A stretch of 36,385 nucleotides of DNA, taken from a virus (taxonomy: Duplodnaviria; Heunggongvirae; Uroviricota; Caudoviricetes). A program made the position numbers and the translations under genes. The notes beneath the pieces were generated by a model. It was not told the DNA's origin and ran no database searches. It saw only the letters and a list, made by a program, of their open reading frames with translations. The DNA is taken from the IMG/VR virus record IMGVR_UViG_2698536369_000022, one strand, 5' to 3'. Every line of letters starts with the position of its first letter. Position 1 is the first letter of the stretch. Shown here piece after piece: positions 1 through 27,121 of this stretch.

Positions 1-381
1 TTATGAGTTCTGGAATTCTTCTGCCCGTCTTTCCAGCTCAGCCATGAAAGAAGTTTTGGCTTTTTCGTGAGCATCTGGGGCCATGATGCTGATGATTTGT
101 ATATTGTCATAATCCATCCAGTGCCTTGTATAAACCAGATAGATATTTGAAGTTCTGTCTATTTGGGCTTTGCTTTTCTTCCATGGTGGTTCTGACGGTA
201 GTCTTATGTGTAATTTATATACAAACGAACCACATAATCTTGCGTTATCTTCCCACTGCCCTTCATTGCCGAATCTGTCAGGGAGAACACCGGTATTTAA
301 CCAGTTTTCCAGAGCCTTTCCGTAAACTTTTGCAATGTCCTGGTATTCAACATCTTTATGAATGCTTACTTTGCTTGCCAT
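1..381 (-). CDS. YafO-like type II toxin (RelE-fold mRNA interferase family), 126 aa
   Basis: Motifs GVLPDRFG, KLHIRL and ..IYLVYTRHW..IISIMAPDAHEK..AELERRAEEF resemble E. coli YafO as I recall it (GVLPDIFG, HIHL, AHLVYCQ..LIAILKPEPHK..MAEAF). Start ATG overlaps the stop of the upstream gene (TGATG). Confidence 0.5.
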   Translation of the reverse strand: MASKVSIHKDVEYQDIAKVYGKALENWLNTGVLPDRFGNEGQWEDNARLCGSFVYKLHIRLPSEPPWKKSKAQIDRTSNIYLVYTRHWMDYDNIQIISIMAPDAHEKAKTSFMAELERRAEEFQNS

Positions 382-1019
382 CAGGAAAACTCCGGTGCCG
401 GGAGTCCCATGTTTTTATGCTCGGCAATAATCATTGCTTTCACATTTCCGTCAGACAGCGTATTGCCTAGGCTGGTCGTTTTGTCTGGTGCGGTGCTTCG
501 TTTGATGGCGTTGATGGCATCACGAGCGATAAACTCTCCCTGCGCAATTGCCCGACCAAAACGAACCAGTTTATTGCGATAGGCGATTCTTTGCTCCATG
601 CTATCCGGATACATTTTTGCCAGGTTATCCGGATCCATTACAATTTTGACAGCCTCTTTAACACGGGTGTGCTGCTTAAGTGACTCTTCGCATATTTTTA
701 TGATTTTTGCGGTTTTGTCAGCAAACAGAGCTCCCTTGCCTCTGTTCTGTCGTTCTTCAATGACTGCATTGAGCGCGGCACGCATGTTGTCATTCAGCCC
801 GTTGATATATTCAATAGCTTCTTCAAGAGGCAGAAACACCTGACCATCATGATGCTCAAATGTAAGCATTGAAACCACTCTGGCGTGTGTCACGGATTCA
901 ATAACTGTTGTTGGTAGTATCGTGCTTTTAGCTGGCACCGGAGCCAGTGATGCTGTCAGAGCTGTAGCAATAGCAGCAATGGCAGCAGACTTTGATTTTT
1001 GTTTCATAATGCACTCCAC
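381..1019 (-). CDS. Hypothetical 212-aa protein with signal-peptide-like N-terminus, translationally coupled to the YafO-like gene
   Basis: N-terminus MKQKSKSAAIAAIATALTASLAPVPA-KS has a basic n-region, Ala-rich h-region and AxA-like cleavage motif. Not similar to YafN/Phd antitoxins from memory. Stop overlaps the downstream start by 1 nt. Confidence 0.6.
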   Translation of the reverse strand: MECIMKQKSKSAAIAAIATALTASLAPVPAKSTILPTTVIESVTHARVVSMLTFEHHDGQVFLPLEEAIEYINGLNDNMRAALNAVIEERQNRGKGALFADKTAKIIKICEESLKQHTRVKEAVKIVMDPDNLAKMYPDSMEQRIAYRNKLVRFGRAIAQGEFIARDAINAIKRSTAPDKTTSLGNTLSDGNVKAMIIAEHKNMGLPAPEFS

Positions 1020-1405
1020 AGGTTGATGTGTTCAGCATATCGCAAATAGCAGCTTGTATAAAGAAACGCCACATCAGCAGTGATCGTTTTACGCGCTTTT
1101 CTTCTTGGATTTGCTGGTCGGTTTTTCTGCGCCAGCTTCCGTCAGTCGTGACATGCTGAAACACTTCTGCACGCTGTTGTTGCAATTGTTCGCCGGGCTT
1201 TACATCAGGCAGGTTATGACCGATGGGTAAGATTTGCCTGATAACAGGCTTATCCGGGCGTCCTTCAATGTTGGATATTTCCACGATGGTGCCTGCTGGC
1301 GGGTAGGCAAAACATCCCGCCTCACTGCCAGCTATGGGGCGGGGGAGTGGTACTGCCGGGTAAATGGGTGTATCGCTTTTTTTGTTACTCCGGCAATTCT
1401 GTCTG

Positions 1406-1666
1406 TTAATTCTGAGGTAAAGGCAAACTCATCTGATTGTTTCCCCTGTGTGAAGCTGGCAGATCATGCCACGGGATACCTTCTGAAGAGTGAACGCCGG
1501 AGGCGTGTTTTGATGTGAATTTATGGAAAGCTTCCAGTGTTGAGAAGCATACGCCGCATTCCAGATTGTTACACTGGTAATACTTTTGCCGCACGGTGTT
1601 TGAATCATTTTCCGGACGACTGGTGCGGATACGGGCAGATGCGCCACAAAGCGGACAACGGAACAT
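1406..1666 (-). CDS. ogr: Ogr/Delta-family zinc-finger late gene activator
   Basis: MFRCPLCGASARIRTSR...YYQCNNLECGVCF matches P2 Ogr (MFHCPLCQHAAHARTSR...YHQCQNVNC) with a Cys4 finger; small protein next to gene D as in P2. Confidence 0.85.
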   Translation of the reverse strand: MFRCPLCGASARIRTSRPENDSNTVRQKYYQCNNLECGVCFSTLEAFHKFTSKHASGVHSSEGIPWHDLPASHRGNNQMSLPLPQN

Positions 1667-1708: not shown

Positions 1709-2818
1709 TCACTCTGTTTCCGCTATCCATTCCGGGATTTTTGCCTCAAGCTCAAGCTGCGTGGTAAAGCCGCTGTTATCAATGGTGTGCTCGGCTTTTG
1801 CAATGATCCAGTCCTGATTATCAATCTCGCTTTTAAATCCTGTTACTGTGCCATGCATTTCGGGGTAGAGTTCTGCACGTCCACGCGCCAGCGTGATGGA
1901 GAATGATGCGGCTCCGCGTTGTAGTTGCTGCCACTTTGCCGCCGCTGCGCGTCTTGCTGCCTGCTCGTTCTGATAAGTCTTGCGTAACACAAACACATTG
2001 CCTTCCGCGCCTTCCATATAATCACCTTCACGGCTGCTGCTTTTCTCCTTTTTGGGTTTTGGCGGTTTGCGGCGTTTCACGCTGACTTTTTTCTTTTTCC
2101 CGTAATTAAGATCAAGCCAGTAAGCGCGTACCCCCGTATACGCTTCGCGGTCAGCAATGCGGAACTGATGGCGATCGCCACTGCTGCGCGTGATGGCGAA
2201 CGATGGCAACGGCTGGCCCTGTGCGTTCACGCCACCGCCAGGCATAATGAATAACAGATTACCGCTTTTTACCGTGGTGATTGCGCCCAGCATTTCCGCC
2301 ATGCGCGTAAGAAAGGACATGTCGCTTTCTTCGGTCTGGTCGGCGTGGTCGATTTCGATATCCATCAGCATTTCGCTGATTTGCGGTTTCAGACCATACC
2401 GATGAGCGATGGCGGATACCACACGCTCAACGGTCACATCATGCCAGGACACCTCACGTTTAACGTTAAATTCATCCCGAAAATCTGCGCTTCTGGCTGA
2501 AACAGTCAGCCTGTCCGGCGGTCCTTCGTGAGCGATTTCATCAACAATGTAAGTGCCTTTTTCTGTCAGCGGTTCCCCTTTCCAGCCAATGAGAACCGTC
2601 AGACGCGCGCCCCGTGGCGGTAGCTGCAACTGGCCATCGGCATCATCCAGCGTGATGGTGAGCTGGTCCGCTTCAAATCCCCGGTTGTCGGTCAGTGACA
2701 GGCTCATCAGGCGTTCTGCCACGCCGGACAGCGTTTTACCCTCGGCGAGAATATCAAAATCCGGCATTTTCACGGGGTCTGTGCCCTGACTGAGCAATTG
2801 CATGGTGGTGTCGGTCAT
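1709..2818 (-). CDS. D: Tail protein D (late control gene D family, tail hub)
   Basis: About 370 aa with gpD-family features; track ORF 1709..2950 has an implausible Pro/Arg-rich leader, so the internal Met (MTDTTMQLL..) at 2818 is the likely start. Confidence 0.8.
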   Translation of the reverse strand: MTDTTMQLLSQGTDPVKMPDFDILAEGKTLSGVAERLMSLSLTDNRGFEADQLTITLDDADGQLQLPPRGARLTVLIGWKGEPLTEKGTYIVDEIAHEGPPDRLTVSARSADFRDEFNVKREVSWHDVTVERVVSAIAHRYGLKPQISEMLMDIEIDHADQTEESDMSFLTRMAEMLGAITTVKSGNLLFIMPGGGVNAQGQPLPSFAITRSSGDRHQFRIADREAYTGVRAYWLDLNYGKKKKVSVKRRKPPKPKKEKSSSREGDYMEGAEGNVFVLRKTYQNEQAARRAAAAKWQQLQRGAASFSITLARGRAELYPEMHGTVTGFKSEIDNQDWIIAKAEHTIDNSGFTTQLELEAKIPEWIAETE

Positions 2819-2975
2819 CTGCTCCCTCCCTGTGTGGCATGGTCGCATGTGCGTGCGGAGGGGGTTACTGCTTTTTGTTGTCGCCGTGGCGGGAGAACGG
2901 CGCAGGGGTGAGATTACGCGCGTGGTGGGTGATGATTGTTGCCGAATCATTTAACGGATACAAGGGGCTGAAGCT
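2819..2975. promoter_or_regulatory. Divergent intergenic region between D and FI; candidate late promoter(s)
   Basis: 157-bp gap between divergently oriented D and FI starts; AAGGGG RBS before the FI ATG. No Ogr TGT-N12-ACA box could be matched confidently. Confidence 0.3.
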
Positions 2976-23535: not shown

Positions 23536-23551
23536 TGGGGCTGTCCTTTTT
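23524..23551. terminator. Bidirectional hairpin between convergent Q and the orphan gene
   Basis: Stem ACAGCCCC / GGGGCTGT with loop GTGAT, flanked by AAAA upstream and CCTTTTT downstream; overlaps both stop codons. Confidence 0.6.
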
Positions 23552-24074
23552 ACCAGAGTTGAACCATTTTCTGGGTGCCGTCAGGCTTGAGATTATCAAT
23601 TTCAGAGAGAACGTAATATTGAATGGCTTCACAAACGGTGGTGTATGGTGAATTACCTTCTTTAAGTGGCACGATATTATTATTAACGCGAACCTGTATT
23701 TCATCGTTATACATTGCGATCGAAAGAGGAGTATGCACGAACGCGACTTCGCCAGGTGTGTCGTCAACCACTGTCTCAATGCTGAAAATCAGTTTTCGCT
23801 CATCATTGCCGCCCCTTGCTTTGGGGGTAGCGGCAGGAATCTGAGATAAAGGCATTCTGCGAAACCCTTCAGTTGTTTCCAGTCCGCATGAAACGTAATG
23901 CTGGCGATTACCGTCGCTATCCGTCCATGTCTGTGATGGCAGCTCCAGAGAGATTTCATAAGCATCAACAATTCCCTGGGCAAGGTGTACAAGCGGGGTC
24001 AGATCTTCATTGCGGCGAAAACTTTCCTTTACCTGCTCTCGTTTTTCTCGTAACTGCTTGTAATTAATGACCAT
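23550..24074 (-). CDS. Orphan protein of about 174 aa (no recognised family)
   Basis: ORF with internal ATG (MVINYKQLREK..) preceded by GGAGG; protein-like composition; no motif I recognise. Track ORF 23550..24113 starts at GTG. Confidence 0.6.
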   Translation of the reverse strand: MVINYKQLREKREQVKESFRRNEDLTPLVHLAQGIVDAYEISLELPSQTWTDSDGNRQHYVSCGLETTEGFRRMPLSQIPAATPKARGGNDERKLIFSIETVVDDTPGEVAFVHTPLSIAMYNDEIQVRVNNNIVPLKEGNSPYTTVCEAIQYYVLSEIDNLKPDGTQKMVQLW

Positions 24075-24639
24075 AAAACAGCCTCCATTGATTTCTTTGC
24101 TCGTATTTTGCACTTATGAAGTGTGGTCGGCAAGGTGCCGCATCACTGACGCGCTTCGCTTGTCTGCTGCTTCGCCGGGGCATAAAAAATTTATGCCCCG
24201 ACTCTCCAGCTCCTGTATCAATCAGATAATTTCACGACGTCTTCCGACTTATCGCTATCATCGACAGTCAGGCTCTTACGCAATCCCGCCGCGCTGACTG
24301 CATGTTCTCGCCGCCTCAGTGCGATTTTGATGGCCTTACCTTTCATCCCATCAAATCAGAACCCCTTACGTCTTTTTCACGTTCAGCGTGAGCGATACAG
24401 CCATTCTGTTGTGTCGCTGCGACATCGTTCAGGGAATGCTATTTACCCCCTGAAACGCGGGCTGTTCCCCCGTCACCTGCGCGCAGAAAAAGCGCGTTTT
24501 TTTGTGCACGCACGGATCCTTGACGGATCCAGCCGCCACGCGGGCCGGAAGGGCAAAAATTCGTTCAAAAAAATTGTGCAAATTTGTGCACTATTGTGCA
24601 GCAGGGCGATGTGCGATTATCGCCCTGGTTTGAGGGGGA

Positions 24640-25179
24640 TCAGGTGTTATTTTTATCTGTCGTCAGTGGGCTAAACCATCCACAATTTACATCGCAGGAC
24701 TGATGCGTTCTGTCCTCGTGTTTCTCCTGCCACAATGCTTTTCCGCCAGCCTTTATGATGGCTCTTTCAACATCCCGCTCGTATCGCAAGGGCTGAAATA
24801 CGTCATTAATGAAATATTCGCTTATGTCCGGAAGCGATACTGCAAGATTATTTGTTTGTTGCGCCGTCCGGCTATGCAGCAAAGCGGCATACTTTAATGC
24901 GTCCTGTGCTTTCTGGAATTTAAGTGCATAGTCAGTGGCGATTTTTTCCAGTTCAGCGATGCGATTTTTTGCTGTTTCCAGTTCATCCAGCAGTGCCAGC
25001 ATGTCTTCCGGTCCAGCCAGAAGTCTGAAGGTGTTGATCGCGTCAATATCCACACCGTAATCTTTAAGTTCCTGTTCGCTTAACAAATCATCATCAACTG
25101 GCAATATTAACAGGCGTTCCATTGCCGGAATTGCACGTTCTGCTGCCATTTGTAGTGCCTGATAGTCAATTTTGCTCAC
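24640..25179 (-). CDS. Ead/Ea22-like family protein (paralogue 1)
   Basis: MSKIDYQALQMAAERA..MLALLDELETAKNRIAELEK shares N-terminal module with the adjacent gene. Confidence 0.55.
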   Translation of the reverse strand: MSKIDYQALQMAAERAIPAMERLLILPVDDDLLSEQELKDYGVDIDAINTFRLLAGPEDMLALLDELETAKNRIAELEKIATDYALKFQKAQDALKYAALLHSRTAQQTNNLAVSLPDISEYFINDVFQPLRYERDVERAIIKAGGKALWQEKHEDRTHQSCDVNCGWFSPLTTDKNNT

Positions 25180-25751
25180 TGACTGCCTCCTTTACGTAGC
25201 TCGGCGGCAAAAGCTACTGCGTGATCATGATGTTCAAGTGTGTATGCACACTCCGCAAACATCTCCACGCCCTGCGCCCGCACTTCAGCCAGGAAAGCAT
25301 CGGTGGCTGGAATGGGCTTTTGTGGTGATATAGCAATGCGAATTGTCTCAAGGTCTGGAGCTGTTTCCGCTGTTGGCACCTTGATATAACCCGTCTGCAC
25401 CCCATTCATGATGAACCTGCGACGGTCATCACATATCGCCTTAAGCCCTGCATTCTCCGCCGCCAGCGCCGCACGACTGGCCTCCAGTTCAGCAATGCGT
25501 TTGTTTTGGGCTTCCCGTTCATCCAGCAGCGCCTGCACTACTTCAGGGTTGAAAGCTGCGATATAACGAGCATTAGCAGCAGCTTTTTTCTGTCCATCAA
25601 ACCCAGGCCATTTGATAACATCTTCGCATCGTTTATCACCTGGCGTATGCACCGCATACGTACCAGTACCCGGCGAAATAAATGCGACCCATTCGCCCTG
25701 TGTTGCCTGTTTTGCTAACTCACGCAGTGCCTGATAGTTGATTTCGCTCAT
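25176..25751 (-). CDS. Ead/Ea22-like family protein (paralogue 2)
   Basis: MSEINYQALRELAKQATQGEW...NARYIAAFNPEVVQALLDEREAQNKRIAELE; family name from memory of prophage annotations. Confidence 0.55.
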   Translation of the reverse strand: MSEINYQALRELAKQATQGEWVAFISPGTGTYAVHTPGDKRCEDVIKWPGFDGQKKAAANARYIAAFNPEVVQALLDEREAQNKRIAELEASRAALAAENAGLKAICDDRRRFIMNGVQTGYIKVPTAETAPDLETIRIAISPQKPIPATDAFLAEVRAQGVEMFAECAYTLEHHDHAVAFAAELRKGGSQ

Positions 25752-25814
25752 TAAGTCGGTCTCCTTGTTTATGTTCTGAGGTGGAGATCAGGGCGAACTC
25801 GCCCTGACGTTGTG

Positions 25815-26126
25815 TTATTCAGGAAATAACGCCCTGATATTTCCGGCCATCTGACTGGTTATCTGTGCGGTTGGTACTGGCTGTGAGTCGGGGCGTTCTG
25901 TCCTGGTTTGTGTCACTGATAACGCCTCATCATCAGCCCATGCAGCCAGTCGGTAAGCCTCTGCCGGATTCATTTTCAGAAGTGCCAGCCCAGCCAGAAA
26001 AGCCACGCGTTGGCCGCTTTTGCGGGCTTCTGGTGTAAGGCTGTCCAGCCATGCGCATGCTTCGCCTTCGTTCTTGACGGCGGCGGGCTTCAGATAGAAA
26101 CTTATCCGTCTGGTTGGTGTCGTCAT
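25815..26126 (-). CDS. parR: ParR-like adaptor/repressor of a type II partition system
   Basis: From internal Met: MTTPTRRISFYLKPAAV..AWLDSLTPEARKSGQRVAFLAGLALL resembles R1 ParR N-terminus (..RRTIAFKLNPD..LDSIPQGERS..RAALTAGLAL); immediately downstream of the parM-like gene. Confidence 0.55.
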   Translation of the reverse strand: MTTPTRRISFYLKPAAVKNEGEACAWLDSLTPEARKSGQRVAFLAGLALLKMNPAEAYRLAAWADDEALSVTQTRTERPDSQPVPTAQITSQMAGNIRALFPE

Positions 26127-26130
26127 TGGT

Positions 26131-27090
26131 TTACTCCTTGTCCATTGCGTACAGCCCATTAACCAGAGCAAACTGTGGCACCCCGTCCGCGATGAAAGTC
26201 GCATTAACTCCGCAGGCTTCGCGGATAGCGGGTGCCACAATCTCCGCCCCTCCACCGACAACCATCACCCGCCCGTAACCCGAAAAAACCGCCAGCGCGC
26301 GGATCACGCGTTGTTTCAGTGTTTCTTCCTTTTCACGAATAACCGCCATCAGGCTGTTGTAATGCGCGTCATTGTGGATGTGCTGGCGCAGCCAGGCTTC
26401 ATCATGGCGATGTTCGATAATGGTATTGGCGATGTGGTGACTGGTACGCATACCGTTAGTGGCCATCACCGACAGTACGGCATCGGCCATCAGGGAAACG
26501 CCTACGTGTGGATCGCAAAACACCTGGCTGATACCTGCCAGTTGTCCCTGAACCTTTGCCACATCCAGCGTGGTTCCGCCTAAATCCACAATCAGCAGGG
26601 ATTCAAACGGACTCATGTCAGCCAGTGCCTTAAAGCCAGCCGGAATGGATTCAGGCATAACCCGTACGTTGCGGATAGTGAATGCCTCACTGTTCTGATA
26701 CTCCACCGGGCGCATAACGTTCGCTTTTTTGCGGTTGATGTTGGCCATGTCCGGCTGGGCGTTTGTGTCGAAATACTCGCTCAGTGGCAGGGTGACAACC
26801 ACATCCACCTCCTGTGGCGTGATGCCTGATTTGACCAGCGCATGATGAATGGCAATGACATTCACATCGCTGTACTGGTATTGCGTGTCGGTCGTCTGGA
26901 CAAAGCGATCGCTGACCGGATCAAAACCATAGCGCACGCCATCAAGCATGTAGTTCGCGGGCTGCATGCCACCGAACGGCGCAGACCATTCCGACTTGAA
27001 GCTGTTCGGGCTGATGGCGTTGCGGCGTTCGCCGTTCTCAGTCCATGCCAGCTTGATGTTGGTGGAGCCGTCGTCGATGTGAATTTTCAT
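26131..27090 (-). CDS. parM: ParM/StbA-family actin-like ATPase
   Basis: MKIHIDDGSTNIKLAW, ISPNSFK, YSDVNVIAIHHALVKSG, NRKKAN, VRVMPESIPAG, LLIVDLGGTTLDVAKV, VMVVGGGAE and ALVNGLY align with R1 ParM motifs as I recall them. Confidence 0.75.
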   Translation of the reverse strand: MKIHIDDGSTNIKLAWTENGERRNAISPNSFKSEWSAPFGGMQPANYMLDGVRYGFDPVSDRFVQTTDTQYQYSDVNVIAIHHALVKSGITPQEVDVVVTLPLSEYFDTNAQPDMANINRKKANVMRPVEYQNSEAFTIRNVRVMPESIPAGFKALADMSPFESLLIVDLGGTTLDVAKVQGQLAGISQVFCDPHVGVSLMADAVLSVMATNGMRTSHHIANTIIEHRHDEAWLRQHIHNDAHYNSLMAVIREKEETLKQRVIRALAVFSGYGRVMVVGGGAEIVAPAIREACGVNATFIADGVPQFALVNGLYAMDKE

Positions 27091-27121
27091 GTCGCTTTTC
27101 CTTATGTTGATTAATTAATCG

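Follow-up and report, generated by a model that had tools for sequence, protein, structure and literature searches.

The window analysed here is the whole 36,385-nucleotide stretch of IMG/VR record IMGVR_UViG_2698536369_000022, tailed-phage DNA that carries a P2-like prophage. It begins with two overlapping minus-strand genes, a putative YafO-family toxin gene of 126 amino acids (aa) and, upstream of it, a gene for a 208-aa partner protein. Comparative analysis suggests that the two form a type II toxin-antitoxin-like cassette with a putative new class of antitoxin, carried as a moron at the ogr-att end of the prophage; we give this reading a probability of about 0.6. An earlier, sequence-only reading of the window had proposed either a new antitoxin class for YafO or a pair that is not a classical toxin-antitoxin unit at all. 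The comparative evidence favours the first, through the linkage of the two genes, the conservation of the toxin and a C-terminal module common to several YafO partners. No description of a pair consisting of YafO and this 208-aa partner was found in the searchable literature.

The resemblance of the 126-aa protein to YafO, noticed from its sequence, was borne out by profile searches. The protein matched the Pfam family YafO_toxin (PF13957) with an E value of 1.1 × 10−27 and a score of 96.5 bits against a cutoff of 25, over profile positions 2–101 of 101, so that the possibility of its falling outside the YafO/RelE-fold family can be set aside. It also matched one unnamed PHROG. Its score against NCBIfam PRK09885 was 42.7 bits, under the equivalog cutoff of 153, and it shared 31% identity with Escherichia coli K-12 YafO over 104 aa. 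Judged by this score and identity, the window toxin is a member of the YafO family and not an ortholog of K-12 YafO. H58, R76 and H105 are among the invariant positions of the toxin alignment with K-12 YafO included. Translation-dependent mRNA interferase activity has been proven for K-12 YafO, which an antitoxin encoded upstream neutralises (PMC2814082); by homology, the window toxin should act as an interferase of this type.

Linkage was scored at loci whose sequence covers a full-length partner gene and continues into the gene behind it; in every one of these, that gene was a YafO gene. YafO stood right behind the partner in all species genomes (8/8), and in the diverged IMG/VR loci that were read the partner lay upstream in 10/10, with six further loci repeating the window's own cassette. 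The cassette was present in 24 of 5,426 complete E. coli genomes, with both genes in every case, and every YafO gene seen in this clade had the partner. The settings of the pair comprised four positions in P2-like phages, other prophages and non-phage chromosomal sites. In other P2-like prophages the pair lies between gpD and ogr; it also occurs in the cos-adjacent P2 hotspot, between gpA and the portal gene, and in one phage it adjoins HicAB and Baseplate_J. One chromosomal copy was found between an aldose epimerase gene and gapA; another, in Morganella, is flanked by rne and a DUF496 gene, at a site without a prophage.

The overlap of the two window genes in TGATG fashion, described from the sequence, was confirmed: on the minus strand, the partner TGA (383–381) and the toxin ATG (381–379) share one base, at 381. 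Across the loci examined, the genes either overlap from stop to start or are separated by gaps of up to 15 nucleotides (nt). The toxin is always better conserved than the partner (for example, 75% vs 49% and 60% vs 28%). Such linkage and such a difference in conservation are the standard comparative signatures expected of a toxin-antitoxin pair inherited as a unit. The general organisation of type II systems is likewise found, in that the genes are adjacent and co-oriented, the partner comes first and the frames overlap or abut.

The same data bear on whether the 208-aa protein might instead sense a phage cue and release or activate YafO, as the sensor of an anti-phage system, or whether the two proteins have separate functions and merely travel together. 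The cassette does sit in prophage cargo regions, including the cos-adjacent P2 hotspot, and copies adjoin HicAB, a methylase or an OLD-like nuclease, as might be expected of a sensor-effector system. The size of the partner (about 200 aa), its lack of a DNA-binding domain and the persistence of orphan 150-aa derivatives without YafO would also suit such a role. Gene order, stop-start overlap, strict pairing and the faster evolution of the upstream partner, however, make up the classical type II pattern. The absence of partnerless YafO genes from the clade fits the need for an antidote, and neither protein is matched in PADLOC. We consider a sensor-effector system, or mere co-travelling, quite improbable.

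Several observations were made on incomplete or uncalled copies. Partner derivatives P0035, P0037 and P0038 (L015:6964-7416, L016 and L017) are 143–150 aa long; they lack the N-terminal segment and all, or the greater part, of the C-terminal module. In the one locus that was read, that of P0035, the gene overlaps the gpD stop in the gpD–ogr interval of a P2-like prophage, and there is no YafO gene. These derivatives may be decay remnants of the gpD-pair-ogr arrangement (L027–L030), or orphan domains with another purpose. Candidates for N-terminally truncated partners with an intact YafO proved uninformative, as P0060 is truncated by the end of its contig, P0042 belongs to a decayed cassette and P0062 is an orphan. 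At L061:4628-5005, partner P0047 is followed by an intact YafO gene of 126 aa (Pfam, 77 bits) that the gene caller of the source assembly missed; missing gene calls in these collections therefore need to be checked at the DNA level.

A region of the partner that could contact the toxin was identified at its C-terminus. Across the partner family E196 and H197 are invariant, and I193, L200 and G201 nearly so. When the toxin was compared by tblastn with deposited phage genomes, phage CUS-3 and a Flyfo siphovirus each gave a more distant YafO gene. Both genes were confirmed with Pfam, and their products are only 25–33% identical to the window toxin. Each is preceded by an unannotated protein, of 193 aa ending SHKRFGMEAPKW in CUS-3 and of 190 aa ending SHILLGAEPPNW in Flyfo. 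These proteins belong to no Pfam family and each founds a small family of its own: the CUS-3 type occurs in phage CUS-3, Pectobacterium and Salmonella, and the Flyfo type in the Flyfo siphovirus, Klebsiella and Leclercia. Like the window partner, they are encoded upstream of YafO, measure about 190–200 aa and have the same C-terminal ending, which in all three families takes the form H-x-x-L/F-G-x-x-x-P-x-F/W and falls just before the YafO start. YafN has no ending of this kind. Over their N-terminal 120–150 residues, the CUS-3 and Flyfo partners are unlike the window family, with no detectable similarity to it, and the signal-like start, the basic N-terminus and the A-P-V-P-A-x-S motif of the window partner are absent from both types.

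Comparison with hhalign linked the three partner families solely through their C-terminal 27–79 residues. The window family and the Flyfo type were aligned with a probability of 92.7% and an E value of 4 × 10−7 over 59 residues (the last 59), and the CUS-3 and Flyfo types with a probability of 83% and an E value of 9 × 10−6 over 79 residues. Because a short C-terminal module is common to otherwise dissimilar proteins that abut YafO genes, this module is likely to be the YafO-neutralising or toxin-binding element.

Some results weigh against reading the pair as a toxin-antitoxin cassette. The direct hhalign match between the window family and the CUS-3 type was weak (probability 23%, E value 9 × 10−4, over the last 27 residues). 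No helix-turn-helix, ribbon-helix-helix or AbrB-type domain was found in the partner by Pfam or by fold search; with no recognisable DNA-binding domain, classical autoregulation is unsupported. A search of PADLOC-DB 2.0 with both proteins, at E values up to 1, gave no match and hence no direct evidence for defence.

The extent and identity of the partner were examined next to its annotation. In the mechanical list of open reading frames (ORFs), the partner starts at a GTG at 1019, which gives the 212 aa stated in the sequence-only reading. This GTG is 12 nt upstream of an ATG at 1007. The start is most likely the ATG, as the GTG overlaps the Shine-Dalgarno sequence GGAG, the RefSeq gene has 627 bp and all homologues begin at this point. 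The long upstream ORF thus stands, with its length corrected to 208 aa. That the partner is unrelated to YafN, as had been supposed, agrees with the searches: Pfam, NCBIfam and PADLOC contained no match to it, PHROGs yielded nothing with an E value under 0.25, and BLASTP gave no alignment with K-12 YafN at E values up to 100. Some RefSeq records, such as WP_069934482.1 (L002), name the partner 'iron-sulfur cluster assembly scaffold protein SufA'. No SufA/IscA profile for Fe-S biogenesis in Pfam or NCBIfam matched it at E values up to 1, and the name looks like a propagated mis-annotation.

The partner family is small: a set of 5.8 billion proteins clustered at 90% identity holds 38 clusters of it, and one of 1.84 billion proteins holds 32 representatives at 50% identity. 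It occurs chiefly in Enterobacterales; a tblastn search with the partner found nothing in the deposited phage genomes of the GenBank phage collection. An AlphaFold2 model built from a 32-sequence alignment is an all-helical bundle with a predicted local distance difference test (pLDDT) score of 82.6. Full length (197–210 aa) is kept down to 23% identity, and conserved residues extend from 22 to 201.

This breadth of conservation also speaks to the idea that the long ORF is an annotation artefact, a fusion created by a wrong start, or that a hidden small ORF or an RNA is the real antitoxin. The GTG start of the mechanical list and the SufA label in some records would be in keeping with an artefact. 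The full length is conserved nonetheless, and a Shine-Dalgarno sequence precedes the ATG. Minimal contexts hold just the two genes, with no conserved small ORF, and an RNA antitoxin or repeat array was looked for in the cassette and rejected, there being no Rfam family and no ToxI-like repeats. An artefact of this kind is extremely improbable. The partner is a full-length conserved gene and not a mis-started fusion of a short antitoxin with upstream sequence, a possibility that the sequence-only reading had itself raised.

A Sec signal peptide had also been proposed for the start of the partner, and here the resemblance is genuine. The N-terminus, MKQKSKS-AAIAAIATALTASLA-PVPAKS, passes a rule-based test for the n-, h- and c-regions of a signal peptide, and is the only one to do so among the 71 ATG-initiated ORFs of at least 100 aa in the window. 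The test is crude; the exported proteins LolA, MipA, BhsA-like, BamD and VasI, encoded by neighbouring genes in the loci examined, pass it and cytoplasmic controls fail. A basic start (+1 to +5), 14–31 uncharged residues and a P-V-P-A-x-S motif obeying the −3/−1 rule are found in 43 of 45 full-length members. The partner thus shares with Sec (signal peptidase I) signal peptides a positive n-region, an uncharged h-region rich in Ala, Leu and Ile, helix-breaking prolines, and small residues at −3 and −1.

Unlike such signal peptides, however, the segment does not behave as a removable tag, less conserved than the mature protein and uncoupled from it. Conservation within a protein is ordinarily lowest in the signal peptide, whereas in the partner it is highest at residues 8–28. 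Entropy is 1.68 for the N-terminal helix and 0.68 for the A-P-V-P-A-x-S motif, compared with 1.75–2.29 for the bundle helices. The conservation is periodic: positions 13, 17 and 21 are always occupied by large hydrophobic residues, as is position 10 in 84% of sequences, and the residues between them are small. Synonymous sites in this segment vary freely, and selection therefore acts on the peptide.

Coupling of the segment to the rest of the protein was seen both in the model and in the alignment. AlphaFold2 placed residues 11–20 at a pLDDT of ~93 and paired strand 21–25 with strand 56–60, which contains the near-invariant FLPL. A deviant N-terminal motif is found in each of the four sequences without P60, compared with 3 of 40 others (Fisher p ~3 × 10−4, without correction for phylogeny). 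The four sequences retain the FGRA and EH..LG motifs. Two members, P0041 (start MGATDLDIV...) and P0047 (...KSRIISELSASMAPAPEAC), have N-termini that are acidic or interrupted and not signal-like, and both precede intact YafO genes.

Were the N-terminus to function as a Sec signal peptide, or as a signal anchor that stays uncleaved, export or membrane tethering would put the helical domain of the partner outside the cytoplasm and tie control of the cytoplasmic YafO toxin to export. The basic n-region, uncharged h-region and P-x-P-A-x-S c-region of the 43 members would be explained in this way, as would rule-based scores equal to those of LolA, MipA, BamD, BhsA-like and VasI. So would the run of 20 uncharged residues flanked by Lys, with the N-side more positive, the long disordered variable linker behind it and the near absence of polar residues from the N-terminal helix. 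Such export is hard to reconcile with a segment that is the most conserved part of the partner, that co-varies with an internal strand and is modelled paired to it at high confidence, and that has lost its signal-like character in P0041 and P0047, whose YafO genes are intact. Flyfo-type and CUS-3-type partners do without a signal-like start, an exported protein cannot neutralise a ribosome-dependent cytoplasmic ribonuclease (RNase), and no precedent was found in the searchable literature. Export is unlikely, if the least so of the alternatives considered here.

Slightly less likely again is the specific proposal that a Sec signal or anchor makes the lifetime of the antidote depend on secretion or membrane status and not on proteolysis. 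The antitoxin would then leave the cytoplasm continuously by export, and the pre-protein might neutralise YafO before translocation; as a variant, the antitoxin or the complex might be held at the membrane or translocon. If true, a switch of this kind could set off a ribosome-dependent RNase whenever synthesis or the envelope is disturbed by phage or stress. Should the N-terminus prove to be a real export signal, this would be an unprecedented form of antitoxin control.

Conservation, covariation and the AlphaFold2 model instead suggest that the N-terminus is most likely an integral hydrophobic helix followed by a Pro-rich clip that packs on the FLPL strand, and not a cleaved export signal. 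Together with the two members that are not signal-like, they leave the likeness to a Sec signal peptide intact and make the Sec reading itself doubtful. There are points to be set against an integral helix. By crude rules, the N-termini of 43 of the 45 members look just like genuine Sec signal peptides. The N-terminal helix (polar fraction 0.06) is also unusual for one in a soluble bundle, as a charged face is missing from it. AlphaFold2 can pack true signal peptides onto mature domains, and P0041 and P0047 could be decaying copies. As a look-alike, the segment would be a caution for automated signal-peptide predictors.

Two further features of this region were noted. A 9-nt tandem repeat, AGCAATAGC (2.4 copies, window 966–987), encodes Ala-Ile-Ala units of the N-terminal helix, and variant P0010 has one extra AAI unit, consistent with slippage. 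An RNA-level cause for the A-P-V-P-A codons was considered and rejected: a perfect 10-nt complementarity between the APVP codons and the YafO Shine-Dalgarno region, present in the window, was not conserved, and synonymous sites vary freely. A hairpin masking the YafO ribosome-binding site was also rejected, as the local folds matched shuffled sequence in stability (z ~0) and were not conserved.

Taken as a toxin-antitoxin cassette, the pair would be expected to work as follows. The cassette promoter would drive one bicistronic mRNA for both genes, and the stop/start overlap would couple toxin synthesis to that of the partner. The partner, presumably labile, would bind and neutralise YafO through its conserved C-terminal helix and tail (E/S-H-x-x-L-G-x-x-x-P-x-F/W). 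Were partner supply to fail, for example because the element is lost or another infecting phage shuts off the host, unbound YafO would cleave ribosome-bound mRNA and growth would be arrested. For the prophage, the outcome would be addiction, or abortive infection or exclusion of competing phages. Given its recurrence in cargo sites of P2-like and other prophages, the cassette is a reasonable candidate for prophage addiction or abortive infection.

The YafN-YafO system of E. coli K-12 (dinB-yafN-yafO-yafP) is organised similarly, with a PF13957 toxin and a partner gene immediately upstream and abutting. K-12 YafN, however, is a Phd/YefM-type protein of 97 aa, whereas the window partner has 208 aa, is all-helical in the model and shows no similarity to it. 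In addition, K-12 yafNO belongs to the SOS-regulated dinB operon, while cassettes of the window type are found on prophages, in other mobile contexts and at unrelated chromosomal sites. Partner swapping among toxin-antitoxin families is well known. If confirmed, the long helical proteins would be a second, unrelated antitoxin class for YafO, and the joining of a short neutralising module at the C-terminus to diverse N-terminal parts would make a clean example of modular partner swapping. An unannotated family mislabelled SufA in RefSeq would also gain a testable function.

A promoter of its own appears to travel with the cassette. A sigma-70-type candidate lies upstream of the partner gene, and its arrangement, TTCTTTATAC ... 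TAT(G/T/A/C)CT, is found again in front of partner genes whose genomic surroundings are unrelated, which is why the cassette seems to carry it along. The candidate agrees with the consensus at 8 of 12 positions, where the scan threshold was 9 of 12. TGATG-like words recur near the conserved promoter, in the window at ~1060–1100 on the minus strand and in L005, L006, L007, L011 and L023. Examples are TGATGgTTCTTTATAC, a palindrome, TTGATCATCAA, in Photorhabdus, and direct repeats, TGATGATTTT, in L023. These words could be a candidate operator.

The pair had been placed just outside ogr, at or beyond the prophage edge. Its neighbours in the window are indeed ogr (1406–1666, minus strand) and gpD (1709–2950, minus strand) of the P2-like prophage, but the edge lies farther out. 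Strain SMBL is 100% identical to window 1–1019, and 99.9% identical over 1–1700, and has serS 233 bp past window position 1. A 20-bp attachment (att) core, AAAGCGCCTGCGGGCGCTTT, which forms the serS terminator hairpin, is duplicated in SMBL, with one copy directly after serS, ~190 bp past window position 1, and the other between int and dmsA. Since a duplicated att core lies beyond position 1, the cassette is inside the prophage, ~190 bp from its end, and is the last cargo between ogr and the att core. The insertion site of the P2-like prophage is the serS–dmsA interval. Both copies of the att core are flanked by TGTCCAT-type repeats, which may be Int arm sites.

The cassette is lower in guanine plus cytosine (GC) content (42–47%) than the neighbouring tail genes (52–58%). 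Between it and ogr lies a pseudogene fragment that matches PHROG 2258, a baseplate protein, and is 88% identical by tblastn to an intact gene of E. coli A2. E. coli A2 matches window 1–1107 at 98.6% and window 1108–1381 at 93% identity, and has 1,025 bp more between the two matching pieces. In A2, the cassette belongs to a different prophage and is located downstream of the intact 565-aa baseplate-type gene. From this arrangement, the module is judged to have been imported together with a scrap of its former neighbour gene, from an A2-like prophage arrangement. The fragment shows how the cassette moved between prophage types. The features of the cassette and of other parts of the prophage are collected in the table.

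Table. Features of the cassette and other parts of the prophage. Coordinates are those of the window unless a locus is named.
Feature	Position	Strand	Remarks
Putative YafO-family toxin gene	1..381	−	126 aa; stop codon at window 1–3
Partner gene, putative new-class antitoxin	381..1007	−	208 aa from ATG at 1007
C-terminal module of partner, codons ~148–208	384..566	−	FGRAxA helix, loop, helix 186–199, tail AEHKNMGLPAPEF
Signal-peptide-like segment of partner, codons 1–28	924..1007	−	Basic start, Ala/Ile/Leu-rich helix, near-invariant A-P-V-P-A-x-S
Shine-Dalgarno GGAG of partner gene	1014..1017	−	6 nt 5′ of ATG; read from sequence
Sigma-70-type promoter candidate of cassette	1034..1062	−	−35 TTTATA (1062–1057), 17-nt spacer, −10 TATGCT (1039–1034)
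Pseudogene fragment	1096..1386	−	aa 299–395 of 565-aa baseplate/tail-type protein; tblastn, PHROG
att core copies	L001:7790-7809 and L034:615-634		Just outside both window ends
187-aa ORF of unassigned family	23550–24113		cos-adjacent region
Two Ead/Ea22-like proteins	24640–25751		cos-adjacent region
ParM/StbA-like segregation ATPase	26131–27090		cos-adjacent region

Rousset et al. (2022, PMC9122126) describe the cos-adjacent hotspot of P2 as a defence-gene reservoir; their paper makes no mention of ogr, gpD or YafO. The P2 tin/old cargo region next to cos is, like the window cassette, low-GC accessory DNA, and relatives of the pair sit there. The window cassette itself is at the ogr-att junction, and that of other prophages is between gpD and ogr, not in the cos-adjacent hotspot. 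In the window prophage, the cos-adjacent variable region corresponding to this hotspot is 23550–27100, and none of the proteins encoded there matches PADLOC. The ogr-att junction seems to be a recurrent cargo site, one not discussed in the hotspot paper. In other P2-like prophages, a hok/gef-type small toxin gene is found directly after ogr (L027:7524-7667, L029, L030 and L015:7912-8052), and in L028 an N6/N4 DNA methylase lies ~0.7 kb past ogr.

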